Assembly: GCA_020849095.1 (NCBI GenBank)
Contig: JADLGX010000320.1
Coordinates: forward strand, 1-62,776
Length of the DNA stretch: 62,776 nucleotides
Reading direction: 5' to 3'
Origin: Candidatus Eiseniibacteriota bacterium
Lineage (GTDB): Bacteria > Eisenbacteria > RBG-16-71-46
Position numbers and translations under genes: made by a program. Shown here piece by piece: positions 3,291 through 29,597 of the stretch. The notes beneath the pieces were generated by a model, which worked only from the letters and a program-made list of their open reading frames with translations, ran no database searches and was not told where the DNA came from. Each line of letters starts with the position of its first letter. Position 1 is the stretch's first letter.

Positions 3291-3515
3291 TCACCCGCGC
3301 TCGATCTCCCTCACATCCCCGACGACCTTCACGTACCCCACGCGAAACGACCGCGTCTCCCCGCTGCCATCGGCCACCTCGACGTTCTCCCCGACCACGT
3401 CGATCACCACCGCTGGCACCACCTCCGACCCCACCCGGAAGCGTACGACCGTCCCCTTGCGGACGGAGGCTCCTGCGCGCGGCGCCGTGCCTGGGACGAC
3501 GTCAGCATCCGACAT
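3291..3515 (-). CDS. Small beta-rich hypothetical protein, 74 aa
   Basis: The ATG at 3513-3515 overlaps the last codons of the 2077-aa gene. Sequence GTVVRFRVGSEVVPAVVIDVVGENVEV. No motif recognised; it may be a shadow ORF. Confidence 0.35.
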   Translation of the reverse strand: MSDADVVPGTAPRAGASVRKGTVVRFRVGSEVVPAVVIDVVGENVEVADGSGETRSFRVGYVKVVGDVREIERG

Positions 3516-12600: not shown

Positions 12601-13033
12601 TCGTGCGCCTGCTGCTGTCTGCCAGCAGGCCCAGGGGAAGCCCGCCCTCGCAAGCGAGAGTGCGCAAGTACTCTCGACGTGCACCTTCCGACAACGGCCG
12701 ACCCCAGAATCGCAGGCCGCGATCGAGAACGTTGTAGAACTGGACGCTGAGCCCCTCGGTCCAGCCCACGGCAGCCAGGACATCATCCCAGCTCCAAGTA
12801 CCGCTGTCGTACCTCCTGCAAAACTCGCGCGCAGCGAACATGCAGAAGGCCGCTGAGACATGCGCGTCGATCGGACCGAACGGACGAAGCTCGGCGCGGC
12901 ATGCTTGTTGGAGCGCCTCGTGCTCGTCCCGCGTGACCCGGTGACCCCAGAGCGGCCGCCCATCAGGTCGCTGTAGGCCGTTTCGCTCCAGAATCTCCCG
13001 GACGACATGCACGCAAGTGGACATGGCTTGCAC
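9650..13033 (-). CDS. Large protein of unknown function, 1127 aa, in the DruH position of a type III Druantia-like pair
   Basis: Uninterrupted ORF (GTG 13033 or ATG 13024), translationally coupled to the DruE-like gene. No domain recognisable by eye, so the call is positional. Confidence 0.5.
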   Translation of the reverse strand: MQAMSTCVHVVREILERNGLQRPDGRPLWGHRVTRDEHEALQQACRAELRPFGPIDAHVSAAFCMFAAREFCRRYDSGTWSWDDVLAAVGWTEGLSVQFYNVLDRGLRFWGRPLSEGARREYLRTLACEGGLPLGLLADSSRRTSLRLYFTDVLRAAERYGMGATELVERFAGWLPRTLRNETVFALTAELVDSVVQLRLLLPPEVADPVVELDRVRPAWRDEIPVRLDDDVALSLLRGLLRERRGESQEQRAPIELALTLSLEGGARFERRALVAPVATEGDLARLFGLDGSTLPSSFYLQLVEPDGVARPVAIATRVEGTDRFRLEPALPPRPIVRGPGVTGRVLLAASIGSRELGITEPPGGQPIPEDLPRVLEGTELRSTHRVRAFGSISSAGNAVLVALPASDRPTSVSGGQVERCEGVAPEGWRVWRILGEAEYRSADDVFRFRTGSAETPERHYEFVGRLVRFGYAGSEYWSGRPRVIELLGDARREVLPLQLEWRPCATPSHWLPWSDEPTGDIDLRVRVDGETRHRTRTCIMPPDFELSLPAVEQRAGSMVLRSSRLRGVRCDSTAEGFSATSMRESNGAFRLQIENAQPGASMTVDLLFHRGAEARFVSPCPVRWRGFVDRGGRPVVSSFVVAIDRLGTVRARAQSPRNERFVLEAKPPNAHWRIVAWLQPQHAGGLSELWLDLVESQLSAMLATTSKLDSAVQVQVAAEHGSIHPGGTPIQVKRYDSELCPIRDEHGHVIRVEIDDASRAVLGEDALGLLRVDARPLDQPDGAALELWRIDETSWAWPAEQAPAGPWLVIGWQDNWARLRPLLITQHGEPSAELDELQRAMRVEGDERWAALRHVAESCANDWSHESWPRIDAILGALRDLPPTTFDIVRHVTQVPAAAASALMRTSDPTAISVLWRSLEQMPFLWGAVPLRAWLQAAQAASRRADDVVALVEPTLGWTKLQALSTLTDAFAQHAVQQQPFMQVVREVLSRSVPHFSPPSQPVLDLAATPVGAQHLNHQMDEERQDFFRRNADARWPEFEWQHLLREETMRMAATACSVVSQGYRTSVLQAPALLAAISLTGEEAGIEALFGLRRARAFDPKYFDFAHAVSLALLLATNSGVLDDD

Positions 13034-13286: not shown

Positions 13287-14408
13287 TCACCCCGCCGCCG
13301 CCTTGATCCTCGCCACCTCGTGCACGAATCCAGCGACGTCTCGCGCGAAGTCAGGCGCGCCCACCCTGCCGACCACGACGACCCGGCTCGGCTCGTCCGC
13401 GCCCGGCTCGCGCATGTTGGCGCCACCGCGGAAGCGGCTCCAGAAGAGCTGCGATCCAATCCCCTTCTGTCCGCCACCGATTCGTCCCCGATGAACGAAG
13501 TAGACGTTGCCGGTGTGAGGGTCGCTCGCGAACGCCCCGCCAATCTTGCGGTCCAGGCCCTCGAACGGTGGGTTGACCTGAACGGTGATTTGCAGCGACT
13601 TCTCGGGGTCGGGCCGCGCGATGCCGAAGCAGTTCCAGTACCGGTTGTCGAGGTCCTGGAACAGCGCCCAGAGCTTCAGCGCCGGGCACCAGTGGATCGT
13701 GAAGGTGTCGTTGCCGCCATGGAAACCGATGCGCTGTCGTCGGCGTACTGTGGCAACTTCGAGCAGCTGCTTGCGGGCCGTCTTCATCGCGCGGGCGGCC
13801 GACTTCTTGTCCTCCACGAGGAAGAGCTCGGGCATGTCGGCGTCGCGCGCTGTCGTGCGCATGAACGGGGCGCCGAGCTCGAACAACTGGTCCCAGAGCT
13901 CGGCCCCGGAGTAGAAGGCGCGCGAGTAGTCTGCGAGCTCTTCGGCCGAAGGCACGTGCGCCTTCTCCTTTGCACGCGCCAGCAAAGCGTCGATCGAGAC
14001 TGCAAATGGATCGAGCGTAGCGCCCTCCCACAGGACCACCGCGTCGAGCGGCGCCATGAAACCTGGCGGCGTGAGCTGACCCGCCCCCAAGATGACTCGC
14101 ACGTCGGTGCCCTTCTGGAACCGAAAGACGTTGGCGCGGAAAGAACCGTCGGCAGCGGGGACCAGCCGCAGGCAGTCGTGCTCCTGGAGCCACGCGAGTG
14201 CCGCCGGCTCGGAGCGCATCCCGTCGAGCGCGACGTAGGCTAACCGAATCTTCGCTGCGCTACGCTCGAGGATTTGCCACAGCGGCCACTTCCCTCCACT
14301 TGAGGCGGCTGCCGGTGTTGCGAATGTCAACGCTTCGCACCAGCCGCAGGCGTCCTCGATCGCGGCCTGAAGCACGCTCGGTTCGCTCAGAACACGCGCA
14401 TCGGCCAC
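13287..14408 (-). CDS. Two-domain protein: degenerate PLD/NgoFVII-like N-domain plus unrecognised C-domain, 373 aa
   Basis: GTG start 2 nt after the helicase stop. The N-domain follows the PLD layout, but FRANVFRF...LGAGQLT replaces HxK...GSxNLT. The C-domain (RYWNCFG...ITVQVNPPFEGLDRKIGGAFASDPHTGNVYFVHRGRIGGGQKG) is not recognised. Confidence 0.6.
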   Translation of the reverse strand: MADARVLSEPSVLQAAIEDACGWCEALTFATPAAASSGGKWPLWQILERSAAKIRLAYVALDGMRSEPAALAWLQEHDCLRLVPAADGSFRANVFRFQKGTDVRVILGAGQLTPPGFMAPLDAVVLWEGATLDPFAVSIDALLARAKEKAHVPSAEELADYSRAFYSGAELWDQLFELGAPFMRTTARDADMPELFLVEDKKSAARAMKTARKQLLEVATVRRRQRIGFHGGNDTFTIHWCPALKLWALFQDLDNRYWNCFGIARPDPEKSLQITVQVNPPFEGLDRKIGGAFASDPHTGNVYFVHRGRIGGGQKGIGSQLFWSRFRGGANMREPGADEPSRVVVVGRVGAPDFARDVAGFVHEVARIKAAAG

Positions 14409-14410
14409 GA

Positions 14411-16765
14411 CTACAGGTCCATTCCTGTCCCCGGATTCTTCGGGGCGAAGTAGCGCTCGAACGTATCGAAGAACATGTCGGCCCGGACACGCCAGAAGTC
14501 GGCGCTGGCATTGGGCCCAGGCTTGACGCCGCGCTTGGCGGCATCTTCGAGCGCATCAATGGAGGGCGAGTACGAGCGTTCACGCGCACGGAAGTCCCGG
14601 TTGTGTCCAGCGCTTGGCATGTCTGCGTGCAGCATCTCGTGGAACATCAGGAACTCGACCACGAAGAGCGGGACGTCGGGCGAGTTGAGCACGCAGTTGA
14701 GCGTGATGCTCTTGTCGGAGTACCGGCAGAATCCCCAGAGGCGCGTGGAGACTCGGGTGGACCAGCGCAGGTCTCCGATGAGCGGCGAGCCGTTTGGGAA
14801 GTGCTTCTTCACGCCGAGCACTCCGTCCCGGAGGGCAGTCAGTGAGTGTCCGCGTTCACCCGAGGGCCATGGGTTCGGCGGCCCCTTCGGGACCACCTTC
14901 GCGACCTCGGGCACCACAGGCGGTTTTGGCGGGCTGAGGATGTCGTTCAGCTCGCGTGTCACGTCGTCCACGAAGGCGCGTTGATCGTCGCGGTACACAT
15001 TTCGGCAGGCCGGCTTCCCGTCCCAGATGTCTTGCAGGTGCTTCTGCTGCGCGAGAAGCGGGAGGTTGCCGTCGACCACTGCGCGCGCAATCGTGCGTGG
15101 GTCGAACGAGCTCTTCTCTTCGAAGGTGTAGTGATGGATCGAACACCCCTTGCGCGTCGCATCGAGCAGAGCCTTGATGTCGGCCCAGCGCGGCAGCGGG
15201 TCCGGCACGTCCGCGAAGTAGGTGCGGAGCAGATCTCGCGCCAGGTCCTCCGTCACCTCGCTGGGCACAGACTCCGGCGTCGGAAACGCAGCAAGGAGCG
15301 CTTTGAGCTGCTCGTGCTGATTGTCGAAGACCATGACGGTCCTCCGCTGCAGGTCGTCCTCGAATGCCTCCTCCCAGGCGTACCAACTGTGCGGCAGACA
15401 CTGGAACACGCCCACGAGCTGCCCACGGACGTTGCTCTGAAGCAGTCGGTACGCTTCACGGACAAGCTCGATCGGAATCGAAATCCGCTGCACGTCGGTC
15501 GGTGCCGCAGCCTCCCTCGGAACGTCCAGTGGCTCGGACAGAACGTACTCGGCGTCGAGGACGTTGAACTGCTCCCAAGTGTCGAGGAAGGTCACCAAGT
15601 AGGCGGTGTCGTTGCCGCCGGACTGCTTGCCACGTAGGGCGCGGCCAACCATCTGGGTCAGCAGGCTCTCCGAACGCGTCGGCCGCGCGATGAACACGGT
15701 GCGTGTGTGCGGAGCGTCGAAGCCCTCGGTGAGCATCTCGACGTTCACGAGGACGTCCGGCTTCCTCTGCTCCTGGTACCGCTGGATGACGGCCTGTGCG
15801 TCGTCGCGGCTGTAGGCGACGTAGTCCGCGTCGACGCCCTTCTTCTTGAACTCGCCCGCCAACGTTTGGGCATGGAGCGTGTCTGCCGCGAATACGATGG
15901 TTGGACCGTACGTTCCCCGCTGCTTCAGGTAATGATCGACGATTAGCCCGTTGCGAGATGCGTTTTTCGCAAGTCGCGCCAAGACGTGGGGCCCGAGCTC
16001 GCCGAACCGCTCGAGGTATTTGTAGTCGTCGGGGGTGAAGTCCTTCTCCAAGTTCACGTTCGTCTTGACGGTCTCGAAGCTCGGCGCAGCCAGAACGTCG
16101 CGGTCGGTGAGCTCTCGACGGGTGACCTGGTAGATGACGGAATGGTCGAAGACCGCGCTGAGACGTTTCTCGTCGTCCTCGTCTGCGCGCACAGGAGTTG
16201 CCGTCAGCCCGAGCAAGGGGCATCCCCACTTCTTCAGCCGTTTCAATAGCTCGAAAGACCGCGGTGCCGGCGCATGGTGGGCCTCGTCGAGGACGACGAA
16301 CAACCCGCCCGGCGAGCCGTCGTGTAGCTCCGCAATGAATCCCGCATTGGCGTCCAAGACAGCGCTCTGCATCGAAGAGAAGATCACTTCGTGGTCGGGG
16401 CTCACGTTGGACCACTTGGCGAACGCAGATGAGAGAGCGATGAGATTCAGTGCCTCCTTGCGCGGATGCGCGACGTTCGCAATTCGCGCGAAGGTCGAGA
16501 ACGCCTGGCGGAGAAGGCTGCGGCGATGCGCGAGCCACAGTACGCGCCCACCGGCCGCGATGTGGTGGGCCAAGAGCCAGTGCGCCGCGAGCAGGGTCTT
16601 GCCCCCTCCCGTGGGGACGACGACGAGGCCGGCCTTCTTGCCCGCGTCGACGAAGTGCGCCGTCAGCCGGTCGTGAGCTGCGGTCTGATGGTCGCGCAGG
16701 GTGACGGGGCTTGCCTGCGCAGTCAGCTTCAAGTGAACGTCGGGGGTCCAGGCGGTCGTGGCCAT
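14411..16765 (-). CDS. SF2 (ResIII/DEAH-type) helicase fused to C-terminal COG1451/DUF45 SprT-like HExxH metallopeptidase
   Basis: Helicase motifs VVVPTGGGKT, VVLDEAHH and QMVGRALRG. The C-terminus LWGFCRYSDKSITLNCVL...FLMFHEMLHAD...GHNRDF fits the WGxC / I-x-LN / HExxH / H-x-x-F signature. Start set at ATG 16763-16765; the track start 16834 is a TTG. Confidence 0.75.
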   Translation of the reverse strand: MATTAWTPDVHLKLTAQASPVTLRDHQTAAHDRLTAHFVDAGKKAGLVVVPTGGGKTLLAAHWLLAHHIAAGGRVLWLAHRRSLLRQAFSTFARIANVAHPRKEALNLIALSSAFAKWSNVSPDHEVIFSSMQSAVLDANAGFIAELHDGSPGGLFVVLDEAHHAPAPRSFELLKRLKKWGCPLLGLTATPVRADEDDEKRLSAVFDHSVIYQVTRRELTDRDVLAAPSFETVKTNVNLEKDFTPDDYKYLERFGELGPHVLARLAKNASRNGLIVDHYLKQRGTYGPTIVFAADTLHAQTLAGEFKKKGVDADYVAYSRDDAQAVIQRYQEQRKPDVLVNVEMLTEGFDAPHTRTVFIARPTRSESLLTQMVGRALRGKQSGGNDTAYLVTFLDTWEQFNVLDAEYVLSEPLDVPREAAAPTDVQRISIPIELVREAYRLLQSNVRGQLVGVFQCLPHSWYAWEEAFEDDLQRRTVMVFDNQHEQLKALLAAFPTPESVPSEVTEDLARDLLRTYFADVPDPLPRWADIKALLDATRKGCSIHHYTFEEKSSFDPRTIARAVVDGNLPLLAQQKHLQDIWDGKPACRNVYRDDQRAFVDDVTRELNDILSPPKPPVVPEVAKVVPKGPPNPWPSGERGHSLTALRDGVLGVKKHFPNGSPLIGDLRWSTRVSTRLWGFCRYSDKSITLNCVLNSPDVPLFVVEFLMFHEMLHADMPSAGHNRDFRARERSYSPSIDALEDAAKRGVKPGPNASADFWRVRADMFFDTFERYFAPKNPGTGMDL

Positions 16766-16779
16766 TTCGTAACGTGCTC

Positions 16780-16795
16780 TGCGAATGCCGTGCCA
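16780..16795 (-). promoter_or_regulatory. sigma54-type promoter candidate TGGCACG-GCAT-TCGCA
   Basis: Matches TGGCACG-N4-TTGCW at 7/7 and 4/5 with exact GG-N10-GC spacing. Predicted +1 near 16769, 4 nt before the helicase ATG at 16765. Confidence 0.5.
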
Positions 16796-16854
16796 CCACT
16801 TCGCCTCACGTCTCGGCGCGCAATGCCGGGACAAGCCGCCGCGGCCACACAGAA

Positions 16855-16897: not shown

Positions 16898-17371
16898 CTA
16901 CCTATCCCACCCCGCTTCACGGCGGTACTTCCTGAGGAGGGCGCCGAGCCGCTTGAGGGTGGCGCTTGCGTCCTTCGGCAACGCGGTCTGATGGACCGCC
17001 AGGTTGCGAAGGCCAACCACCGCGCCCAGGACGGACCTTCGAGAGCGCGCATCCTCGACGCAGGCGCGGACGCTAGGGTCGAGCACCAGGCCTTCGGCAG
17101 CGTCCCCGATAGACTGTAGTAGTTGACCTGCGGTCGCCCTCCGAAGCGAGACGGTCCTCTTGCCGACCTGCGGCAGCAAGTCCGCTGGATCGCGGCGCGC
17201 GGCGAGCGCGACCGCGATCAACAGCTCCCGCAGAAAGTCGTCGAGCTTGGACCCAACCACGGTGATGCCTCCAATCAGGTGGCTCTTCGCCGTCGTGGGC
17301 GCGCGGGCGTCTTCCTTATCGATGCGCTCGAGAAGCGCAGCCGAAGTCTCGTCAAGCGGGTGCCTAGCCAT
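16898..17371 (-). CDS. Minimal HEPN-like (DUF4145-like) helical protein, 157 aa
   Basis: The ATG at 17369-17371 lies 1 nt after the kinase stop. Predicted helical. An R-x4-H motif, RNLAVH (nt 16991-17008), sits near the C-terminus, as in HEPN RNases. Confidence 0.5.
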   Translation of the reverse strand: MARHPLDETSAALLERIDKEDARAPTTAKSHLIGGITVVGSKLDDFLRELLIAVALAARRDPADLLPQVGKRTVSLRRATAGQLLQSIGDAAEGLVLDPSVRACVEDARSRRSVLGAVVGLRNLAVHQTALPKDASATLKRLGALLRKYRREAGWDR

Positions 17372-17372
17372 T

Positions 17373-19106
17373 CTACCCCCTCCCCAACGCCGCCGCGAAG
17401 TCGGAGCACGTCTCGAAGCGCTCCGAGGGAGCATCGCGAAGGGCCCGAGCGACCGCTGTATTCTGACGATTCGAAAGGCGCCCGAACTCACGCGGCTTGT
17501 AACGTCGTTTGAACACGAGCCCCTCCAGCATAGAGCAGAAAACGAGCGCGAGCGCGTACTGGTCCGTCTTCCGTTGCGCTTTCTCTCCGCGGAGCTGCTC
17601 CGGCGCCGCGTACGCCCGCGTGTACGCGACCGGAGCGGTGGCAAAGACCGTGGTGTTTCCGACCGTGTTCTTGCCGGTGCGTCCCTGGACCGCAATGCCG
17701 AAGTCGCCCAGGCGCACCTCCCAGGGGCTAGTGGTCGTCTTCACGAGCACGTTACCCGGTTTCACATCTTGGTGGAGAACGCCCTTCTTGTGCGCGTAGT
17801 CGAGACCGGCCGCCGCCTGACGAACGACCTCGATGGCGACGGCGAGCGCAAGCGAGTCGCCGCTTTCGATGATTCGTTCCAGCGATGTGCCGCCGTGGTC
17901 CATCACCAGGTACGTCCCGACGGTAGGATCGCAACCGTAGTCGATGTAGGTGCAGATGTTCTGGTGACGCAGGTCCCACGCGATGCCCATCTCCTCGCGG
18001 AGACGGGCCCGGGCTGGGTCCGACGAGGTCTTCAGCACGACCAACTTGCGCGGGTGCTCGAGCCGCATCGCTTCCCAGGCAACGCCGAAACCGCCTTCGC
18101 CGAGGCGACGGCGCAGCTCGTAGCGGCCGCTGACAATCCGCCTAGTTCTCTGGGAGGGCGGCAGCTCCGAGTCTTCGGTCTTGCGTCGCCTTTCCGGGGC
18201 GGGTGTCTTGCGCTCTTTTTCCTCCTCCTCCTCGCCCTCGGCCTCGCTGGTCGCTTCACCCACGAGTTCGGGTATCACGCGAGCCAACTTGGTGTTCCCG
18301 TTTGCTGCTTCCAGCCGGCGGACCACTTCTTTAGGCTCCACGTCGGCAACGTCGGCAACCCACCGTAGAAGTGACGGTGCGCGCATGGCGGTCGCGACCC
18401 TGAGCTCCGAGAGCATGGCGCGCGACGGTCCAAGCGCGCTGATCGGTTGCCCGGGCAGGAGGGTACTGAGCAGCGTCCTCCCGTTCGCCGCGCGAGCCTT
18501 GGCCGACAAGCTTCTGGCGGACAGGTCAACGCGACGAGCAAGCCAATTCAGAAGCGGCGGAGCGCGGCGGAGCGCTGCGGCAGGAATCGCACCCACGAGC
18601 TCGAAGACGGCAAAATCCCTCTCCGCATCCAGGAACCGCCGCTGGCTCCCGGGACGAACGGCATCATCGTGCTCTTCCTGTTCGTGGTCGCCGTTCTCGT
18701 CGTCCGCTTCCTCTAGCTCTTCCTGTTCATCGTCCTCGTCGTCGTTGTCGTCGTTGTCGTCGCTCTCGTCCTCCCCTTCCACGAGCTCTTGGAAGACGTT
18801 CGCAAGGAGGCTCTTGCCGTGCTCCTTGTTGAGTCGCGCTCGCACGGTGCGGAGTGAAAGGCCCGTTGCAGCGACAAGTTCCTGCTCGAGGTTCGCGTCG
18901 CGTGCGGCAGCTACAGTGATCCCCTCGAGCCTTGCGGAATCCTCGGGCCACTCATCCGAAAAGATGCGGCCTGCGAGCGTGTTGCCGTGAGCTCGAGTGA
19001 CGCGTGCCGTCACCTGGCGCGCCGAAAGCCCGGTGATTGCGACGAGCAGGCGCAGGTCGCGCTCGCCGAGCATGGAGACGCGGACGTCAGCGAGGCGCTC
19101 GGTCAT
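17373..19106 (-). CDS. Hanks-type Ser/Thr protein kinase with repeat-containing N-terminal region and acidic tract, 577 aa
   Basis: Kinase motifs LGEGGFG, VVLK, HQDVKPGNVL, GDFG and APE in the C-half. The N-half has four ~29-aa HTH/SAP-like repeats and a D/E-rich tract (nt 18663-18779). Confidence 0.85.
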   Translation of the reverse strand: MTERLADVRVSMLGERDLRLLVAITGLSARQVTARVTRAHGNTLAGRIFSDEWPEDSARLEGITVAAARDANLEQELVAATGLSLRTVRARLNKEHGKSLLANVFQELVEGEDESDDNDDNDDEDDEQEELEEADDENGDHEQEEHDDAVRPGSQRRFLDAERDFAVFELVGAIPAAALRRAPPLLNWLARRVDLSARSLSAKARAANGRTLLSTLLPGQPISALGPSRAMLSELRVATAMRAPSLLRWVADVADVEPKEVVRRLEAANGNTKLARVIPELVGEATSEAEGEEEEEKERKTPAPERRRKTEDSELPPSQRTRRIVSGRYELRRRLGEGGFGVAWEAMRLEHPRKLVVLKTSSDPARARLREEMGIAWDLRHQNICTYIDYGCDPTVGTYLVMDHGGTSLERIIESGDSLALAVAIEVVRQAAAGLDYAHKKGVLHQDVKPGNVLVKTTTSPWEVRLGDFGIAVQGRTGKNTVGNTTVFATAPVAYTRAYAAPEQLRGEKAQRKTDQYALALVFCSMLEGLVFKRRYKPREFGRLSNRQNTAVARALRDAPSERFETCSDFAAALGRG

Positions 19107-19171: not shown

Positions 19172-20065
19172 CTAACTGCACTTGGCAGCTCGGCCCGGTA
19201 CGGCATGGCGGTCGACGAGCTTGAATGTCGCGGTGCCCGCGTCAAAGTCAGATCGCACTCGGTGCCAGATGTCCGGGTCGAGGAGCGACACGTCGGTCTG
19301 CTGCCCCGGCGGCTTCTCGTCTAATCCCCCATCGACACGGACGCCGCCAAGGTCCGTCACGATGTAGCGAGCGTGAAATTGATCGCCGTCCGGAAGTTCG
19401 TTCCAGCGAAACAGCTCAACCTTGATTCCCCTCGGGATGAGTCGCGCAAGCTGGCTGTCGCACGAACTGCGGAAGAAGCGCTCGTCTGCCCTCGCGGTAA
19501 GGTGGACTTCGCATCGCCGCAGCCCACGTCCGTCCCGCGCGGCTTCGGTCAGAAGCGCCTCAAAGACCTTTCGGAAGCGCGGTGTCTCCGGGCCGAAATA
19601 CGGGTCGACCAGCTGAAGCTCGCGCGAGCACCTGAGGAGAGGCGACAAGAGCCCCGCAAGCGCGCGTCCCGTCTGGGCCACTCTGCACTCTCGAGCGACT
19701 CTCCAAGGTTCGGCGTCGGGGTCTAGGTCATCACGATTGACCACCTTGGGATGCGCTCTCGGGTTATCGAGGGCCACAATCGCCTTGAACAGCTCGGCCT
19801 CGCGCTCGGTTTCGACCAGCCAATCCCCCGCTGAGAAGTCGCGGGCTACGTCGCACACGGCCAGTGCTGTTGCCCTTCGGAGCCGATCCACAATGCGGAG
19901 CCTCTGCACAGGCTTCCAAGGCGCGGCCTCGAGGACGAGGTCCTGCCACTTCCTCGGACATCTTGCGATGAAGCGCCCAGTGCGGGGACCACACTGATCC
20001 ACGATTCGGCCGAAGTTGGCCTCATCTGCGATCGCAGATGGATCAACGGCAAAAACCTCGAACAT
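19172..20065 (-). CDS. Partner protein of the ATPase, 297 aa, with a C-terminal HxR(x)4D motif (PLD-like?)
   Basis: The ATG at 20063-20065 shares one nt with the ATPase stop (TGATG). C-terminal LVDPYF ... FHARYIVTDLGGVRVDGGLD resembles an HKD motif with K replaced by R. Confidence 0.6.
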   Translation of the reverse strand: MFEVFAVDPSAIADEANFGRIVDQCGPRTGRFIARCPRKWQDLVLEAAPWKPVQRLRIVDRLRRATALAVCDVARDFSAGDWLVETEREAELFKAIVALDNPRAHPKVVNRDDLDPDAEPWRVARECRVAQTGRALAGLLSPLLRCSRELQLVDPYFGPETPRFRKVFEALLTEAARDGRGLRRCEVHLTARADERFFRSSCDSQLARLIPRGIKVELFRWNELPDGDQFHARYIVTDLGGVRVDGGLDEKPPGQQTDVSLLDPDIWHRVRSDFDAGTATFKLVDRHAVPGRAAKCS

Positions 20066-21723
20066 CAAAAGAGCTCCCGCGACCGCTCCTCGAAGAAGCC
20101 TTTCGGCCATTGGTCAATGAACTCGCCCTGATCGTCTACACGGAGCTGATGCACGATCGTACCACCCAGGCCGCGCTCCAAATAGACGACGGCAAGCTGA
20201 GCTGGGCGCAGGCCGGGGTGGCCTTCAGGTAGCTCGCCTCCTGCGGTTTCGCGGATTCGCCGGAGAAGTCGGAGGATGAGGTGCTCGCTGTGGGTCTCAA
20301 CGATGAAGCGGTGCGCCTTGCCCGGTTGAATTCCTGCAACCAGGAGATCCGCAATGTCCGCCTGAAGGCGAGGGTGAACGTGGACCTCGGGCTGCTCGAT
20401 CGTGATGGTCTGCTCGTCTGATGCAAGCACTTGCACGACGAACGGCAGGAGCTGACTGATCCCGAAACCCACGTCCGGCAGTGCAACCGAGGTTGCGGCC
20501 GATCGCTTCTTGTCTTGAAGCCGCACTTCGAACAGATCATTGGAGCGACTACCCACCGGTTCGATGGCAATGCGATATCCAACATCAAGGCGAGTGAGCC
20601 AGTCGTTCGTCTCTTCGACCAGCTTCGGCCGACGAAAGAGAAGGTCCGGAAGCAGGTTCCCCGAGTAGCCAACATCAGGCGGCGTCGTCCCGGTGAAGAT
20701 GTACAGGCGCTGGGGAGCTTTCCTATAGGGCCCCAGCGGAAAGAGACGCTCGAGCGCCATCTCCAACGACACCCCCGCTTCCATCAATGTGTCCGCAGCT
20801 TCGATGAAGTGCGTCCGTAGCGGCAATCTGGATCGCCGGTGGTACGTCGCGGCGGTCCGCTCGGGGTATTCCCCCCCCGCATCTGGACTCACGGCAAACG
20901 GGATGAATCCGTCCAACGCGACAACTCCGCCGTGCGATGCGGATCGCCTCCGCGCTGCGTACGCGGCGAGGGAGAACTCAGAGTTGTAGAACCTGATCGC
21001 TGCGTCAACGGATTCGACCGTGAACTCCTCGTCCGGAAACAGCCGCCCTTGCCGATCCGGGTGTTGTCGCGCGATCTCTTCTCGCATCGCTGCGAGTGAC
21101 TCCAGAATCTCCGTGCGCAGTTGAAGGGTTCGACTGTATTCAGCCTCCCAGTAGTGGTCGTCGGCTACGACCTCCGTACACACGGCACCGCGCGGTCTTC
21201 CTGGGCCCTTCCTATCCCGTCGCATGCCGTACGGTCCAAAGGGTGAGAAACGGCGACTGTGCTGTAGCTGTGCACCGTGCAGATCCTGCGGTTCGAACTG
21301 GGCGACTGATTCAAGTCGTTGCCCATCAAAGACACGAAAGCCCGCTAGAGCGACGTCACCTGCCCCTTTTTGCCGGAACGATACCTCCAGACCAATGGCC
21401 CGCCCGGTCTCACCTTCGTCGCGTGTGCGGAGCATCCTTGACGAGCCTCGCAAGTCGAGCCGAAGAGACAATGTCCGCTCGGCATCGTGGTCGTACAAGA
21501 GCTCGTGAAAGCTCCCAAGATCCACCAACCCGCCCTCCGCGCGCGGCAGGAGCAGCGCTCCGTGTTCACGGCTGAAGCGTGTTTGCTTCAGAAGGTTGAG
21601 CGCATTCAAGATCGAGCTCTTCCCCGCGCTGTTCTCGCCGTAGATGAGGGTGATGGGAGCGAAGTCCAAGCGCACCCTGTTGCCGAAGGCCTTGAAGTTC
21701 TCCAGCTCAATTGCGTGAATCAT
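20065..21723 (-). CDS. AAA_15/ABC-type ATPase with DUF3696-like C-terminus, 552 aa
   Basis: N-terminus MIHAIELENFKAFG...GENSAGKSS (Walker A). Walker B/D-loop region ITIEQPEVHVHP, then ETHSEHL. C-terminal tail EFIDQWPKGFFEE. GGAGG lies 6 nt before the ATG at 21721-21723. Confidence 0.75.
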   Translation of the reverse strand: MIHAIELENFKAFGNRVRLDFAPITLIYGENSAGKSSILNALNLLKQTRFSREHGALLLPRAEGGLVDLGSFHELLYDHDAERTLSLRLDLRGSSRMLRTRDEGETGRAIGLEVSFRQKGAGDVALAGFRVFDGQRLESVAQFEPQDLHGAQLQHSRRFSPFGPYGMRRDRKGPGRPRGAVCTEVVADDHYWEAEYSRTLQLRTEILESLAAMREEIARQHPDRQGRLFPDEEFTVESVDAAIRFYNSEFSLAAYAARRRSASHGGVVALDGFIPFAVSPDAGGEYPERTAATYHRRSRLPLRTHFIEAADTLMEAGVSLEMALERLFPLGPYRKAPQRLYIFTGTTPPDVGYSGNLLPDLLFRRPKLVEETNDWLTRLDVGYRIAIEPVGSRSNDLFEVRLQDKKRSAATSVALPDVGFGISQLLPFVVQVLASDEQTITIEQPEVHVHPRLQADIADLLVAGIQPGKAHRFIVETHSEHLILRLLRRIRETAGGELPEGHPGLRPAQLAVVYLERGLGGTIVHQLRVDDQGEFIDQWPKGFFEERSRELF

Positions 21724-21799
21724 GGTTGACCTCCGAGCCTCCTGTGCAAGCGTCGGGCCATGCGAGACAAGCACCAGTCCGATCGATGTTTGGCGGTCG

Positions 21800-21838
21800 G
21801 ATGCCCTTCAAGTTCTCCAGCTCGATGCGTGTGATCAT
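21800..21838 (-). pseudogene. Vestigial 5' end of an AAA ATPase gene ([13 protein letters not shown]...) coupled to the hsdS stop
   Basis: The ATG overlaps the hsdS stop (ATGA). 39 nt are about 77% identical to the start of the functional ATPase gene 115 nt downstream. The frame then degenerates. Confidence 0.45.
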
Positions 21839-23013
21839 GCTCGTCCCAGTTCCCCGCGAAACGCCTGCTGCGTGAGAGCGTCGAACAAGTCGGCCGCGAT
21901 CCTGTCGTGCGCTCTCTGCGTGGCTTCCACCTTCGCGCAACGCCCAGCGACCGTTTCCAGCGTGCGCTGAAGCGCGAGCGGGGGAACCGGTAGCGCCAAC
22001 TCGCGAATTCCCGGGCCACTGAAGTTTTGCTGCGCCGATTGCCGCGAGCGGCGCGCGATGAACGCCTGGACACGTTCACTGGCGATCACCATCCGCGCAT
22101 AGCGCGGCAGCACGCGCTTCTTCAGTTGCAGGCGAATAAAGTAGGCGCCCGCGACACACTCGGGCGCCTCTTCCTCGACGAGTGCCGTCTTGCCGACTGT
22201 CGCCCCGGTTCTTGCGAAAATGATCTCGCCCGGCTTGAGCGCGTACCGGGCACGGTCCGCCTCGGACATCGAGAGGCGGGGCATCGATTCGAAGTCCAGC
22301 GCCCCCCCCGCGCTGAGGTCAGTGATGCGCACGATGCGCACTCCGTCACTCGAGTACTTCTCGTTGTAGAAGCGAGGTCCGTACTCCATTTTCTGCAGCT
22401 CGGCGCCGAACGTTGACACCGGCCACCCCTTCGGATTCGTCACCGGGTCCCCGAACATCTCCAAGAACGCCGACCGCAGCAGCTCCTCGGTGAGCGCGAT
22501 GGCGTGCTTCCGCTTGCGCCGAACCGCGTCGGCATTGTCGAGGATGTCGGCGATGCGGCGCTGCTCGGGAAGCGGGGGCAGCGGCAGCTCCAGTGCCTCG
22601 AGGTCACGAGGGCTCAGACGTGGAAGATTTGCGCCGGCGCACCTGAGCACGGCCTCTTCGACCGTCTTGGGGTGACGCAGGAAATGGAACAGGAATCCGC
22701 GGTCAACCCGCGGGCCAGGAAGTATCGGCACAATGTCCGTGCTGCAGATGCCGTAGAAATCCGGGCGCGCGGTCTTCTTCAGGTAGGGTCGCAACTTCCC
22801 AAACAGGATGTGCTTCGGCCCAAAGCGAAACTTGTTGCTGGCCAGCACGCCCGATACCACGGGCGACATCCCGACGAAGTTTCCGTCACTGTCGATATGC
22901 TCAAGCCCGACGTAGTTCGTCCCCGTCGCGATGTCTCCGGGCAGAACAGCGTCGCGCTCGATGCTCGCGACGTCGTCAACACGCACGCGCTGCCAGGCGG
23001 CGCCGGTCGTCAC
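21835..23013 (-). CDS. hsdS: Type I restriction-modification specificity subunit
   Basis: Two target-recognition halves separated by the conserved [24 protein letters not shown] spacer. ATGA overlap with hsdM. Confidence 0.85.
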
Positions 23014-24512
23014 AACATCCCCTCCAGCGCCTTCAGGTCCTTCGCAATCTCCGCCTCCAGCGCCCGCAGCTTGCCGATGATCACCTTCGGCGACTCGTAC
23101 TTCACCTCTTCGTGCACTGTCTCCTTGTATCGGTTGATGGAGAGGTCGAAGTTCTTCTCCCGAATGTCAGCGACCGGCACCATGAAGTGCTTGGCCGTGC
23201 GGTCCGCGTCCTGCTTCGGGTTCCTTTTTCGCCAGCGCTCGAGCGCATCCGGCAGGTCGTTCTCCTTGACCGGGTCGCGCTTGTCGTCGAGCGAGAAACC
23301 GTCGGCGCCGACGTCGTGGAAGAAGACGTGATCCGTCTCGCCATTCTTCGTGAATACGAGGATGGCGGTCGACACGCCCGCGTACGGTCGGAACACGCCC
23401 GACGGGAGTGAGATGACAGCCTCGAGCTGGTTGTCGTCGACCAGCATCTTGCGGAGCGCGACGTGGGCTTTCGACGATCCGAAGAGAACGCCGTCAGGCA
23501 CGATGGTCGCGCTGCGGCCGCCCTTTTTAAGCATCCGCAGAATGAGCGCGACGAACAAGAGCTCCGTCTTCTTCGTCTTCACCTTCTGAGTGAGCGACGG
23601 GTGCACATCCTCGGCGTCGAGGCTCCCCTTGAACGGCGGGTTCGCCAGCACCACGTCGAAGCAGCCGCTGGCCTGCTTGGGGAAACGCTCCGGGAAGGAG
23701 TTCGAGAGCGTGTCCTGGTAGTGGATGTCGGGGTTGTCCACGCCATGGAGCATCAGGTTCATCGACGCGATACGGAGCATGGTGCTGTCGAAGTCGAAGC
23801 CATGGAACATGTCGTTCTGGATGTGGCTCCGGTGCTGCTCCAGCTTGTCGCCCGTGTAAACCCTCTCGCCGCTCTCGGCCTTGTAGGTACCCTTGGCGGA
23901 GCTGTGCTTCTCGAGCAAGTACAGCATTGTCCCAACAAGGAAGCCGGCCGTGCCGCACGCCGGATCGCCCACGGTCTCGGTCGGCTTCGGCTCGAGCATC
24001 TCGACCATGAAGCGGATGATGTGGCGTGGAGTCCGGAACTGTCCGTTGATGCCGGCCGTCGTCAGCTTGCTCAGCAAGTACTCGTAGAGGTCGCCCTTGG
24101 TGTCGCCCTCGGTGATGGGCAGGGCATCAATCCTGTTCACGGCGGAAACGAGCAGGCTCGGCCTCTGAATCATGAGCTGTGCGTCGGCCATGTACTCGCC
24201 GAAGGTCGTGCCGCCGTTGAGGCTGCGGAAGTGCGGGAACACCTTGTCGCGCACGATGCCGAGCATCTTCTCAGCCTTGAGGTGCCGGAAATGCGACCAG
24301 CGCAGATCCTGCTCCTTCGGGCCGAAGACGGGCTTGAACGGCTTCTTCGTCCGCGCGGCACGCGCCTCGTTGCGCGTCTCGGCGACGTCGAGCAAGCGCG
24401 CGAACATCAAGAACGAGATTTGCTCGATGACCGTCAGCGGATTGGTGATACCGCCGGTCCAGAACTCCTCCCAGAGCTTGTCGATGTCGTTCTTGAGCTT
24501 TCCAGTGATCAT
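23010..24512 (-). CDS. hsdM: Type I restriction-modification N6-adenine DNA methyltransferase
   Basis: HsdM-type N-terminus ([21 protein letters not shown]), AdoMet motif [10 protein letters not shown] and catalytic NPPF (VLANPPFKG). ATGA overlap with hsdR. Confidence 0.9.
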
Positions 24513-27500
24513 GCTTGCTTGCTCTCAGGGGGTGGGCTCGACGGGTCTGCCTTGCGCGGTTGGAACGCCTCGAGGATTCCGAGGAGCTCGTCGAGCTGAC
24601 CCTTCTCGGTGAACAGGCCATCGACACCGTTGGCGTGAAGGTCGGTGAAGGGAGGGTCGTAGAGGCGCTCGAGCTCGATGCCGCCGTTCTGTGCGATGTG
24701 ATTCTTCAGTAGCTGCAGAAACCTGAGCTGCTGGGCCGAAAGGTGCAGGTGCTTGTGGACGAAGCCAGTGAACGCGGCATCGACCGCTTCGGGATCGAGG
24801 CCCACGAGACCGCGAAGCGCGTCAGTCAGCGATTGCCTCGTCTCCGGCTGGATCAGGTGCTTGAGGTTCGCCTTGTCGTCGACCTGGAGCACCAGCTTCG
24901 CGAGTGCGTCCAGGTCCTCGTCCCGGACTGTCTTGCCGGCGCGAATGCGCTGGAGGGTGGGGTCATTCATGAAGTGCTCGCGCAGGACTCTTTCCACGCG
25001 ATGCCGGTACTCGATCAGATCCAGGCCATCGAGCGTGGGCGTGCGATCGTAGCTGTGCACCACTTGCTCTGCGACGTCGTACACCTTGGGTACGAGGCGA
25101 GAGGGATTCGTCTGCGCCTGGTACTTCATGATGCCGCGGAGCTCGGTTCGGATCTCTTCGAGCTTGGCGGCGGTCACGGTGGCCCAGAGCTCCTTGCTCT
25201 GGACCGCGCGAATGGCCTCGGCCTTCGCCTTGACCGGGTTCTGGTTCTTCATGAGCAGCGCGACCTCGGCTTCGACGGCAGCCTTCAGATCCGCCACCCT
25301 GGGCGACCCCTTGATCACCGCCTCCTCGAGGCGCGTCATGAGCAGATCGAACCGGTAGGCATCCTCGTCACCTCGGATGTTGCGCCACTGCATGAGCGGC
25401 GCGGCGATGGATAGCAAGTCTGCCTTGGTCGCTGCCGCGAACTGGGCGACGGTGTCCCGGTTGGACAGGAGCTCGAGCTCCCGCCGCCGGTCGCGCACGT
25501 CGATGCTCCTCGAGTCCATCGCGTCGCGGACGTCCCTGACCAGGAGGTCCACGGTTGACTGGAAGTCAGGCTCGCTCATGGCGTCGAGCGCCGCCTGAGC
25601 GACAGCCATGCGCGCTTCGAACAAGTGTTGAAGCAGGGACTTCTGGGGAGCCGGCTGCTTCTCCTGGTACTCCTCTTCGAAGAACCAGAAGTTCTTGCCG
25701 TGGTCGAAGATGAGGAACTCGGACTTGTCGTTGCCGGGACCAAACAGGTCTCGACATAGCCGGGTCCCGCGCCCAATCATCTGCCAGAACTTCGCCGGCG
25801 TCTTGACCGCCTTTGCGAAGACGAGGTTCACGACCTCGGGGACGTCGATGCCCGTGTCGAGCATGTCGACAGAGATGGCGATGACGGGCTCCGAGTCCTT
25901 GGTCTTGAAGTCGTCGATGAGCTGATCGGCCCGCGGTTCCTGGTGGTCGATGACTCGGCAGAAAGCGCCGCCGTACTGCGGGTACATCTCCGCGAAGAGC
26001 TCGGCGAGGTGGACTGCGTGCAAGTGACTCTTCGCGAAGACGATCGTCTTGCCGACGCGGCTGCCCGTGGCGTCGCGGATGCCCTCTTGCATCAAGCTCC
26101 GGAGGACGACACGGCTCGTGTCCTTGTTGAAGACATCGCGATCGAGTTGTGCGGGCGTGAATTCAACGCTGTCTGGCTGGTCTTCCTGCGCCTCCAGCTC
26201 CGTCTGCTGGTCCGCCGACATCTGCGAGTACCTGAACCCCTCCTCGCGGAACCGCGTCTGAAACTCGCGCACCCGGAACGGCACGAGGTACGGAGGAATC
26301 GAGCTCACCGCCTCCTCGTAGGTGAAGTTCGCTGTCGGGTCGTTGTGCTCGCACCCAAACAGCTTGAAGGTGTCTCGGTCGGCGTACCTGAGCGGCGTAG
26401 CCGTCAGGCCCACCTGGAACGCATCGAAGTACATCACCAGCTCGCGGTACTTCTTGTAGATGCTCCGGTGCGACTCGTCGAAGATGACTAGGTCGAAGAA
26501 CCCGACGTCGAACGTCTCGTAGCACTTCAGCATCGCTGGGTAAGTCGCGAGGTAGATGCGCTTGTCTCGGTCGGACGAGGTCGTGCTGTCGACTACCACT
26601 CGAGGCTCGTCCGGGAGGAACTCCTTGAAGACGTTGTTGGCTTGCTTGCGAAGCTCGCGCCGGTCGCAGAGGAAGAGAATGCGTTTGGCCCAACCCGCAC
26701 GCATGAGCAGATCGCAGAGCGACACGGCGACGCGAGTCTTGCCAGTGCCGGTTGCCTGGACCAGCAGCGCACGGCGAAACTTCTGCTCGAAGCGCTCGTT
26801 CACGCGCTTCATCGCCTCGAGCTGGTACATGCGCTCGGCGATGGTGATGTCCGGGGCCATGGTGGCCAGCGGTTTCTTGTTCTTTCGCTGGTGCAGGAGG
26901 TATTCGAGACTGTCTTTCGAGTAGAAGCCGTAGACCTTTCGCGGGGTGAACCCCTGCGAGTCGTCCCATACATAGATGTCGATGCCGTTGCTGTAGAAGA
27001 TGACCGGCCGCTGTCCGGTTTCTTTCTCGAGGCAAGTGGCGTAGATGCGTGCTTGTTCCTGACCGATGCGGGCGTCCTTGGCGGTCTTCTTCGCCTCGAC
27101 CACGGCCAACGGCTTGCCGTCATCGCCGTAGAGCACGTAGTCGGCATAACCTTCTCGCGACTCGGTGGGCATCGTCGAGAGCTGGATCTCTTGACCCACC
27201 TGATCGTTGCTCTTCCCGCCAGCGCCGACGTTCCAGCCCGCCTCGACCAGTGCTTGGTCGATGAGGCGGCGGCGCGTTGCCTCCTCGCTCAGATGGAGGA
27301 CGTTCGCCGCTTTCTGTCCCTCGCTGCGGAGCGCCTCGAGCTGTTCCTGGGTGTGTGCGACGAAATTCTCGGCCGCCTCGCGCTTCCGCCGTTCGTCTTC
27401 GAGGTCGGCGAGCACCTTCTGGAGTTGCGCGTCCTGCTGGGCCAGCTTCTCCAGGGCGTCCTTCTTCGCCTTCTGGAGCGCCGCGCTGTCGGTCGCTGCC

Positions 27501-27940
27501 GTCGCCGGAGGGTCTGAGTAAGCCGGGCACTGAGCGCGGTTGCCCTGATCGATGCGGAGGAAGACCCACTGCGCGATGTCGAAGGCGTCACGAAGCGCCT
27601 GGAGCGCGGCCTGCGCGCTCGGAGGGTCGTGGTGAGCAGCCTTGTTGCCTGCTTTGCGGATTGTGTGGAGCTTGCCGAGCACCACATCGGGGACGGCGGT
27701 CCGAAACGGCGTCTCGTTCAGGAGATCGAAGACGCTATCGGTGTACGGCCGTGGCAGTCGGTAGGTCTCGTAGATGATGGCGACGACGGTCTCCATGAAG
27801 GAGCGCAGCTTCACGAGCGCGCTTGCGGGGTCCGGACGCGCGTAGACCTCGGCGAACCCACCGAGGTCGGCGAGCTCGGGATGCCTCGGTCGCAGGAACT
27901 CGAAGTTCCTCGACTTCATCAGCGCGTCCTCGGGGAGCAT
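24509..27940 (-). CDS. hsdR: Type I restriction enzyme R subunit with N-terminal DUF4145/HEPN-like module and EcoEI-type C-terminal domain
   Basis: N-terminal NFEFL...[10 protein letters not shown], helicase motifs VQATGTGKT and DESH, long helical C-domain. The alternative start ATG 27919 (MKSRNFEFL) has a GAGGA 7 nt upstream. Confidence 0.85.
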
Positions 27941-27972
27941 GCTCGCCCCAGCAGCACGTTCCGTTCCATCAT
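27938..27972 (-). promoter_or_regulatory. 35-nt element ATGATGGAACGGAACGTGCTGCTGGGGCGAGCATG (sigma54-like TGGAAC-N5-GTGC) ending at the hsdR ATG
   Basis: GG-N10-GC spacing. It overlaps the activator's TGA stop. 27/35 identical, ungapped, to the element at 29563-29597 on the other strand. Confidence 0.45.
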
Positions 27973-29465: not shown

Positions 29466-29498
29466 CGGCCCTGGGAGGGTAACAACTCCTCTGGCGCC

Positions 29499-29512
29499 AG
29501 AAGAGATCTTCT
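29499..29512. promoter_or_regulatory. Palindrome AGAAGA-GA-TCTTCT (possible UAS) in the divergent intergenic region
   Basis: 6-bp arms, extended imperfectly to CCAGAAGAGATCTTCTTGG. Centred about 88 nt upstream of the predicted +1 of the 29563-29597 element. Confidence 0.4.
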
Positions 29513-29562
29513 TGGGCGGGGGGATTCGACCCATGGAAGAACCGAATGATCCGGCGACTGCG

Positions 29563-29597
29563 ATGATGGAACGGTTCGTGAAGAAGGGACGTGCATG
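29563..29597 (+). promoter_or_regulatory. 35-nt element ATGATGGAACGGTTCGTGAAGAAGGGACGTGCATG ending at the ATG of the coiled-coil nuclease gene
   Basis: Twin of 27938-27972. -24-like TGGAAC; the -12 position reads GTGA (GA instead of the canonical GC). Same 28-nt distance from TGG to ATG. Confidence 0.4.

Follow-up and report, generated by a model that had tools for sequence, protein, structure and literature searches.

Two adjoining genes on the minus strand of contig JADLGX010000320.1 of Candidatus Eiseniibacteriota bacterium (all 62,776 nucleotides of it, referred to here as the window) raise the question of whether bacteria, too, combine a protein kinase with a ribonuclease (RNase) of the HEPN type, as eukaryotes do in Ire1 and RNase L. 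The first gene encodes a 577-aa Hanks-type Ser/Thr kinase and the second a 157-aa HEPN-like protein. An earlier note on this DNA had interpreted them as a kinase-gated RNase module encoded as two genes, and that interpretation is supported by the sequences and predicted structures discussed below. The explanation that we favour is that both proteins form one functional unit, in which the partner kinase controls an RNase of a defence island; we put its probability at roughly 0.6. The features of the pair are listed below by their position in the window, with the supporting evidence in brackets.

16898..17371, minus strand: 157-aa HEPN-like protein, predicted RNase subunit (open reading frame (ORF), family conservation, AlphaFold2 model, Foldseek, Pfam matches of family members)
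16991..17008, minus strand: RNLAVH (R122-H127), HEPN catalytic motif of the Rx4H form, closing core helix 3 at its C-terminal end (alignment and model)
17228..17242, minus strand: D44-x3-R48, the [ED]x3[RK] motif in helix 2 (29-57), second HEPN hallmark (alignment)
17369..17385, minus strand: junction with GGAGG Shine-Dalgarno sequence, kinase stop codon TAG, one spacer base and ATG of the small gene (sequence)
17373..19106, minus strand: Hanks-type Ser/Thr kinase, 577 aa, ATG start, with N-terminal repeats, acidic linkers and a C-terminal kinase domain (ORF, Pfam, PADLOC, motifs)
17376..18122, minus strand: catalytic domain of the kinase, from residue 329 to the C-terminus (577), with GEGGFG, K359, HQDVKPGN, DFG and APE (Pfam and motifs; aligns with partner and fused kinases)
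18252..19064, minus strand: four helical repeats of about 45-55 aa (TGLSxRxVxxRLxxAHGNxLL...WP) with poly-acidic linkers between them, kinase residues ~15-285 (sequence)

The gene pair and its linkage across relatives

A Hanks kinase adjoins the small gene in 13 out of the 13 informative independent loci in which the two proteins are encoded separately. Two further loci, L016 and L097, lie on short contigs that are uninformative, and they stand outside this count. Ten of the 13 split loci have the kinase followed by the HEPN gene, one has the HEPN gene followed by the kinase, one is divergent and one (L012) has a fragment of a kinase C-terminus upstream. The order kinase then HEPN on the same strand is found in the window, L001/L002/L003, L004, L007, L005/L006, L013, L014/L015, L098-L100 and L101. 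In L009/L010 the order is reversed and the genes abut, and the kinase and HEPN genes of P0096 are divergently oriented. The upstream fragment in L012 reads ALSTDPKGRFSSCVEFAQSL, the C-terminal signature of the partner-kinase clade. A 4-nt overlap is seen both in the L005/L006 pair (40% identity) and in the most distant of the pairs examined, L098-L100, which consists of a 439-aa kinase and a 141-aa HEPN-like protein. The context of this most distant pair is mobile-element-like, with an excisionase-type HTH_17 gene, a 905-aa N6_N4 methyltransferase, a 1188-aa protein and a Peptidase_M78 gene.

In at least seven relatives, one polypeptide carries a Pkinase domain followed by a HEPN-like domain (P0066, P0079, P0114, P0077, P0118, L017 and L018), the last two from Polyangiaceae loci of metagenome-assembled genomes. 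In these fusions, HEPN helix 1 begins about ten residues past the C-terminal RFxxC...A motif of the kinase. Most partner kinases share a common N-terminal repeat with the fused ones and align with them over the full length, in a comparison that leaves out P0096 and L098-L100; the L009 kinase has no N-terminal repeats and carries a long C-terminal extension. Because partner and fused kinases align from end to end and the HEPN-like domain follows at so short a distance, the window pair represents the split form of a protein that is single-chained in some relatives. The word 'split', used for this arrangement in the earlier note, is thus literally right.

As a control, 80 loci were fetched by generic kinase motifs. 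A HEPN-like domain was present only in the two Polyangiaceae fusions and in none of the 78 others (0/78). Pairwise identities of the kinases and of the HEPN proteins co-vary with r = 0.78, a value that is reached in 0 out of 5000 permutations and that partly reflects signal from close relatives. The genomic linkage that the earlier note expected is therefore present wherever the split loci were informative, and the kinase is an obligate partner of the small HEPN protein.

At the level of the nucleotides, the junction in the window reads ...GGGAGGGGG TAG A ATG GCT, with the kinase stop codon at 17375-17373, a single spacer base at 17372 and the start codon of the small gene at 17371-17369. This sequence bears out both the start at 17371 and the one-nucleotide spacing that had been claimed. 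The GGAGG lies 7 nt upstream of the small-gene ATG and, in relatives, the kinase and HEPN genes overlap by 4 nt at the same junction. Such a layout suggests translational coupling of the two genes. A scan of the locus for promoters and terminators, which could mark operon boundaries, gave nothing over shuffled expectation. The 157-aa ORF has a GC content at third codon positions (GC3) of 0.79, similar to that of the neighbouring genes, and a ratio of nonsynonymous to synonymous substitution rates (dN/dS) of 0.12 compared to its L001 orthologue (75% amino-acid identity). On these two grounds it is a real gene under purifying selection.

The kinase shows a Pfam Pkinase match over residues 329-540 (E = 8.9e-32). 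Its motifs are GEGGFG (336-341), VVLK (356-359, including K359), HQDVKPGN (445-452) and GDFG (467-470, with DFG at 468-470), and AAPEQ is found in the translation as well; all motifs listed in the earlier note, and the gene end at 17373, were recovered on the minus strand. As all catalytic motifs are there, the window kinase is judged catalytically intact. It is of the non-RD type (HQD). The fused relatives and the L014 kinase have a catalytic loop of the form HLDV[S/T]PxN and keep the D, the N and the DFG. Among known kinases, the window kinase is nearest to the bacterial Hanks kinases of the PknB/PknI/PknE type. PADLOC returned matches to PD-T4-6 (1.2e-40) and mad6 (4e-39), the former spanning kinase residues 322-537 and profile positions 4-216 of 292. 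The N-terminal repeat has no match to a Pfam family, with faint hints of a helix-turn-helix type at most. Its copy number ranges from two to six across the partner kinases, fused ones included, and residues 106-150 of the window kinase consist of D or E for 62%. The N-terminal repeats may be a sensor or a docking region for DNA or protein.

HEPN assignment of the small protein

The hallmarks of HEPN domains were laid down by Anantharaman et al. 2013 (PMC3710099): a pair of alpha-hairpins in which an insert separates helix 2 from helix 3, an Rx4-6H motif at the end of helix 3 in which a polar residue (N, D or H) follows the R, and another acidic residue that is conserved as well, usually within Ex3[KR] in helix 2. 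The fold, the Rx4-6H motif and the acidic motif of helix 2 are each found in the 157-aa protein. RNLAVH occupies residues 122-127 and is followed by 30 residues after H127, in agreement with its reported position about 30 residues before the C-terminus.

Conservation of these residues was assessed over the family of the small protein. A word-indexed search of 5.8 billion proteins returned nine relatives of the 157-aa protein, one of them identical, and a word-indexed search with family alignment A3 returned 11 proteins. A profile search of 1.84 billion cluster representatives yielded 112 relatives, 60 of which at E <= 1e-10, which corresponds to a family of about 112 clusters at 50% identity. 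No relatives were found by tblastn against plasmids and phages. Over the 86 aligned members, R122 and N123 are invariant (86/86 each), and H127 is kept in 80 (~93%), with K in the remaining six, so that the R and H of the motif are indeed conserved among homologues. Position 44 is E or D in 82/86 members and position 48 is R or K in 62/86. R16, E20, G34 and G82 are near-invariant. Two hydroxyl residues are also conserved: S113 (71/86), located just ahead of helix 3, and T/S80 (59/86). In a larger alignment of 107 sequences, RNxxxH occurs in 92, and a subclade of eight has RNxxAK instead (P0024, P0025, P0027, P0031, P0032, P0039, P0050 and P0072). At least one member of this subclade (locus L012) lies downstream of a kinase C-terminus. 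The RNxxAK variant may be inactivated or of altered chemistry.

The AlphaFold2 model of the 157-aa protein, built from a six-sequence alignment, is all-helical, as had been predicted from the sequence, with a predicted local distance difference test (pLDDT) of 88.7 and a predicted template modelling score (pTM) of 0.85. Helix 1 (5-21) and helix 2 (29-57) precede a partly helical insert of 56 residues (58-113), after which come helix 3 (114-127), ending in RNxxxH, and helix 4 (135-153). This is the canonical HEPN topology, with one core helix after the motif and two ahead of the insert. When the model was compared to the PDB with Foldseek, seven out of seven matches with TMq >= 0.50 (0.50-0.61) were HEPN proteins, namely HepT chains from MntA-HepT complexes and YutE of B. 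subtilis, with match probabilities up to 0.98; other helical bundles reached a TMq of at most 0.43. A fold search of BFVD gave nothing informative, and family profile searches of the PDB sequences (alignments A2 and A3) gave chance-level matches only (a tRNA hydroxylase at 0.02 and a histidine-kinase fragment at 0.7).

A member-wise Pfam scan of the 86 members resulted in 27 member-family matches on five HEPN families: HEPN_Swt1 (10 members, best 7.6e-5), DUF4145 (seven, best 2.8e-4), RiboL-PSP (six), Las1 (two) and MAE_28990 (two). The three Pfam families most often matched by members are all HEPN families. The family consensus hits three HEPN profiles with weak E-values (0.16-0.23) that are restricted to the motif-bearing C-terminal part. 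Swt1-like, DUF4145 and RiboL-PSP proteins thus resemble the present family in the motif-bearing C-terminal half, and they occur in restriction-modification (RM) operons (PMC3710099) and also in Abi operons. Nonetheless, the consensus stays below the gathering score of these families, the window protein has no match to them, and no kinase partner is described for them in the literature searched. None of the lines of evidence is decisive by itself, yet motif conservation, the topology of the AlphaFold2 model, Foldseek and the member-wise Pfam matches agree, for which reason we consider the small protein very probably to be HEPN, as its likeness had been read in the earlier note. The entries of the family clusters are unnamed or labelled 'hypothetical protein' throughout, and the family is unannotated, i.e., without a Pfam, PADLOC or NCBIfam model.

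The combination of both domains invites a comparison with Ire1 and RNase L. In these enzymes as well, a HEPN RNase domain whose motif is of the R-polar-x3-H type directly follows a kinase fold, and they act in an antiviral or stress context; the fused relatives have the same domain order with a linker of about ten residues. On the other hand, the genes in the window are split into two ORFs 1 nt apart, and direct fusion is found only in relatives (at least seven). The HEPN protein of the window has the canonical topology, whereas KEN is circularly permuted, with its helix-1 equivalent at the C-terminus (PMC3710099). The window kinase is of the bacterial Hanks type with N-terminal helical repeats, whereas Ire1 and RNase L carry ankyrin or lumenal sensor domains. 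According to the 2013 HEPN census, the kinase-HEPN fusion (KEN) is restricted to eukaryotes and had no known prokaryotic relative (PMC3710099), a vacancy that a true homologue, or even the prokaryotic source, of the kinase-KEN enzymes would fill. The shared domain order and the short linker would fit such a homologue. We consider it very unlikely that the family is one: neither the window protein nor any of the 86 members nor the consensus matches PF06479, the topology is non-permuted, the kinase is nearest to PknB/PknI/PknE, and no Ire1 or RNase L structure is among the top 50 PDB matches of the low-confidence model of a natural fusion (pTM 0.57), which is a weak negative. The topology, the Pfam result and the type of kinase led us to reject KEN homology. 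The Ire1/RNase L likeness proposed in the earlier note therefore stands for the architecture, through the fused domain order, and falls for homology. We regard the kinase-HEPN module as a probable architectural analogue of the kinase-KEN enzymes and not a homologue. No description of a bacterial kinase-HEPN module was found in the literature searched.

The defence island around the pair

The window is a defence island on one strand. Its genes are ordered as RtcR-like activator, hsdR/hsdM/hsdS, ATPase with a 312-aa partner, kinase, HEPN, helicase-zincin, 373-aa protein, DruH and DruE. The neighbours of the pair are the following.

27969-29918, minus strand: RtcR-like CARF + sigma-54 AAA+ activator, directly upstream of hsdR (PADLOC RtcR_PspF2 4e-187)
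21835..27940, minus strand: type I RM genes hsdR, hsdM and hsdS (recurrent upstream context; module membership not implied)
19172-21774, minus strand: AAA_15/AAA_21 ATPase with DUF3696 tail and 312-aa partner, between hsdS and kinase (PADLOC NsnB 1.4e-46, PDC-M55A, HEC-03B)
14411..16834, minus strand: superfamily 2 helicase (ResIII + Helicase_C) of 807 aa with a C-terminal YgjP-like zincin (HEMLH) (Pfam, conservation)
14411-14650, minus strand: YgjP/DUF45-like zincin of the helicase, HEMLH...GH (Pfam E = 7.6e-5, below cutoff)
13287..14408, minus strand: 373-aa protein without a family match; L001 and L004 keep it together with the helicase, L007 lacks it
3502-13033, minus strand: complete Druantia type III pair directly downstream of the 373-aa gene, with DruH at 9650-13033 and DruE (2077 aa) at 3502-9735 (PADLOC)

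Type I RM genes accompany the pair in five loci (window, L001, L004, L007 and L009/L010). In the window, L001, L004 and L007, the block of kinase, HEPN and helicase follows the type I RM operon. What lies between hsdS and the kinase varies: the ATPase pair in the window, a 1272-aa TPR/PIN-TPR-GreABC protein in L007 and both in L001. In L009 (1700-9591), the pair abuts hsdS and is very divergent, though hsdM is 81% identical to that of the window, which suggests a cassette exchange at the hsdS-proximal site in L009/L010. Kinase-HEPN pairs without any RM genes are found in L005 and L013, and the L005 pair adjoins a ParE toxin-antitoxin module.

The helicase-zincin is kept only in close relatives, at 84-93% identity in L001/L002 and L007 and at 73-82% (fragments) in L004. 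Downstream of the distant pair L014 lies a ResIII helicase that is unrelated and has a TnsA/RE-like nuclease domain, and no helicase stands beside the pair in L005, L009, L013 and L098. The suggestion in the earlier note that the pair may work with the downstream helicase-peptidase is thus compatible with the close relatives and does not extend to these four pairs. Given that the helicase is limited to part of the relatives, the kinase-HEPN pair is the core and the helicase an accessory in part of the family.

A different grouping of the same genes is offered by MADS, a methylation-associated defence system for which Mad6, Mad7 and Mad8 are all mandatory in the authors' model (bioRxiv 10.1101/2023.03.30.534895). 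Kinase, HEPN, helicase-peptidase and the 373-aa protein could be the restriction or effector arm of a MADS-type system together with the upstream hsdM and hsdS, instead of containing an autonomous pair. The gene layout (methyltransferase, S subunit, AAA ATPase, unknown, kinase and two to three unknowns) is like that of mad2, mad5, mad3, mad4, mad6, mad7 and mad8, PADLOC reports mad6 (4e-39), mad2 (1.3e-41), mad5 (2e-27) and mad3 (1.7e-9), and the block lies after hsdS in four loci and abuts it in L009. Like Mad6, the window kinase is part of a methylation-linked defence island. However, none of the 157-, 807- and 373-aa proteins matches a model of mad7 or mad8, hsdR is there in full, the kinase scores 106 bits against the NCBIfam MADS6 cutoff of 460, the pair occurs without RM genes in L005 and L013, and the hsdS-kinase slot is variable. 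Membership of MADS itself was rejected as mad7 and mad8 are not detectable, and we deem a MADS-type arm an unlikely description of the block.

The position of the pair also recalls PrrC and RloC, HEPN anticodon nucleases encoded inside or beside type I RM operons (PMC3710099) that probably serve as a second line of defence. They differ from the present family in their regulator, which is an N-terminal ABC ATPase and not a kinase on a separate or fused chain, they share no sequence similarity with it, and several kinase-HEPN pairs are without RM neighbours. Position alone suggests that the module may be a PrrC-like backup to type I restriction.

Some further observations on the island can be added. 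The RtcR-like gene is a regulator of the RNA-damage type that adjoins a predicted RNase module; RtcB and RtcA were not found among the ORFs scanned next to it. The ATPase and its 312-aa partner resemble the Menshen NsnB/NsnC-type pair without NsnA. The Druantia III pair is not conserved beside the kinase block in L001 or L007. In L004 (7649-12994), frameshifts divide both kinase and helicase over several ORFs, and hsdR and hsdM are likewise in pieces; the locus is either a copy in decay or an erroneous assembly.

Proposed control of the predicted RNase

HEPN RNases cleave RNA without a metal, leaving ends with a 2',3'-cyclic phosphate, and act as dimers with a composite active site; two ways of controlling them through a partner domain or enzyme are of interest here. 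In Ire1 and RNase L, the KEN dimer is brought together when the kinase domain self-associates. HepT-MntA relies on a covalent modification, by which the partner enzyme keeps the HEPN protein silent. For the module in the window, we propose that the RNxxxH and [ED]x3[RK] residues would form a metal-independent RNase site and that the RNase would need dimerisation to build it, like other HEPN enzymes. Most likely, the kinase would hold and control this RNase. The kinase would activate the RNase upon a trigger such as phage infection, possibly a neighbouring type I restriction system that fails or is inhibited, and the RNase would then cut cellular or phage RNA and abort the infection. The switch itself might be a self-association driven by nucleotide or by autophosphorylation, in the manner of Ire1 and RNase L, or a changed phosphorylation state of the HEPN subunit. 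Ire1-like scaffolding or dimerisation is favoured by the short, rigid-looking linker of the fusions and by the sensor-like N-terminal repeats. Phosphorylation of the HEPN protein is favoured by the intact catalytic residues of the kinase, the toxin-antitoxin-like gene order and the conserved S113 and T80.

The latter option approaches a type VII-style toxin-antitoxin system, in which the HEPN protein would be a constitutively toxic RNase and the kinase an antitoxin that phosphorylates it, similar to MntA that AMPylates HepT; loss of kinase activity or of ATP during infection would then free the RNase. Several observations fit this arrangement: the tight coupling of an upstream modifier and a downstream HEPN gene as in HepT-MntA-type operons, HepT chains of MntA-HepT complexes as nearest structural matches, the retention of every catalytic residue in the kinase, the two conserved hydroxyls in the HEPN protein, and the ParE module next to L005. 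A precedent for a fusion of a minimal nucleotidyltransferase (MNT) with HEPN exists (PMC13000451). In general terms, the likeness to HepT-MntA lies in a small standalone HEPN protein beside a nucleotide-using modifying enzyme that presumably controls it, with HepT and YutE as best structural matches (TM 0.50-0.61). Yet, the partner is a Pkinase-domain protein and not an MNT at every locus, the small protein has no DUF86 Pfam match and carries an insert of 56 residues that separates helix 2 from helix 3, and the kinase has a large N-terminal sensor-like region. Membership of HepT-MntA was rejected because the partner is a kinase. For a toxin-antitoxin system more broadly, the phosphosites are candidates only, one lineage has the reverse order and another is divergent, and the big N-terminal repeat region of the kinase is more sensor-like than expected of a simple antitoxin. 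We regard this constitutively toxic variant as possible and rather doubtful, and it is a sub-variant of the kinase-controlled RNase and not an exclusive alternative to it.

The roles of the two proteins may also be reversed, such that the kinase is the effector, phosphorylating host or phage proteins, and the HEPN-like protein a non-catalytic sensor or adaptor that binds RNA or a ligand. The kinase domain is indeed near those of the PD-T4-6 defence kinases and of mad6, at least one member of the RNxxAK subclade, which is without the catalytic His, still adjoins a kinase, and inactive HEPN domains with a sensing role are known, e.g., in Swt1 (PMC3710099). The match to PD-T4-6, which is a single-gene system, covers only the generic kinase domain; that family includes neither the first 320 residues nor the obligate HEPN partner. 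Furthermore, the invariant R and N, the H kept in ~93% of the members and the conserved [ED]x3[RK] point to a maintained catalytic site. An effector kinase with a non-catalytic HEPN adaptor is accordingly an improbable arrangement in our view.

Several results count against a kinase-controlled HEPN RNase and temper the probability assigned to it. Pfam, PADLOC and NCBIfam scans gave no curated-family match for the 157-aa protein of the window at E <= 0.1, and the Pfam matches of the family members are sub-threshold. The Foldseek E-values are weak (>= 0.17), and four-helix bundles match easily. The Lys that replaces the catalytic His in the RNxxAK subclade indicates that catalysis is probably not universal in the family. 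The AlphaFold2 model of a natural fusion, built from a six-row alignment of fusions, is of low confidence (pLDDT 70.8, pTM 0.57), and the top 50 PDB matches of this low-confidence model are generic or bacterial Hanks kinases; the model gives no reliable interdomain geometry, Ire1-like or otherwise. Finally, several RM-linked loci are close to the window, so that the RM context is partly shared descent.

Taken to the extreme, the missing curated match and the weak Foldseek E-values would allow for a chance motif in an unrelated helical protein, with a meaningless adjacency to the kinase. This is extremely improbable in view of the invariant R and N, the adjacency in three arrangements, the natural fusions, the co-variation of both proteins and the purifying selection, and it was rejected on the conservation of the motif across the family. 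At the other extreme stands an elaborate version of the kinase-controlled RNase, in which bacteria would have built the RNase L/Ire1 principle independently or, less likely, passed it on to eukaryotes: the repeats would sense infection, self-association of the kinase would assemble the HEPN dimer in split or fused form, and the RNase would act as a backup to type I restriction at the RNA level. We put this version forward tentatively, as one that is possible without being likely.

HEPN RNases are common defence effectors whose switches tend to differ by family: a CARF domain, an AMPylase of the MNT type, an ABC ATPase or an antitoxin. A new type of prokaryotic switch would be added by a Hanks kinase that is an obligate HEPN partner in both split and fused form. 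Present-day defence-system finders overlook the family, as it has no model in Pfam, PADLOC or NCBIfam. The recurrent position at the side of hsdS makes a PrrC-like role as 'guard of restriction' directly testable. The family is rare, but its parallel to the kinase-KEN enzymes is striking and the system is small: the kinase-HEPN architecture exists in bacteria too, even if by convergence, and the pair would offer a simple two-protein model of HEPN nuclease control by a kinase fold, which has so far been studied only in Ire1 and RNase L.

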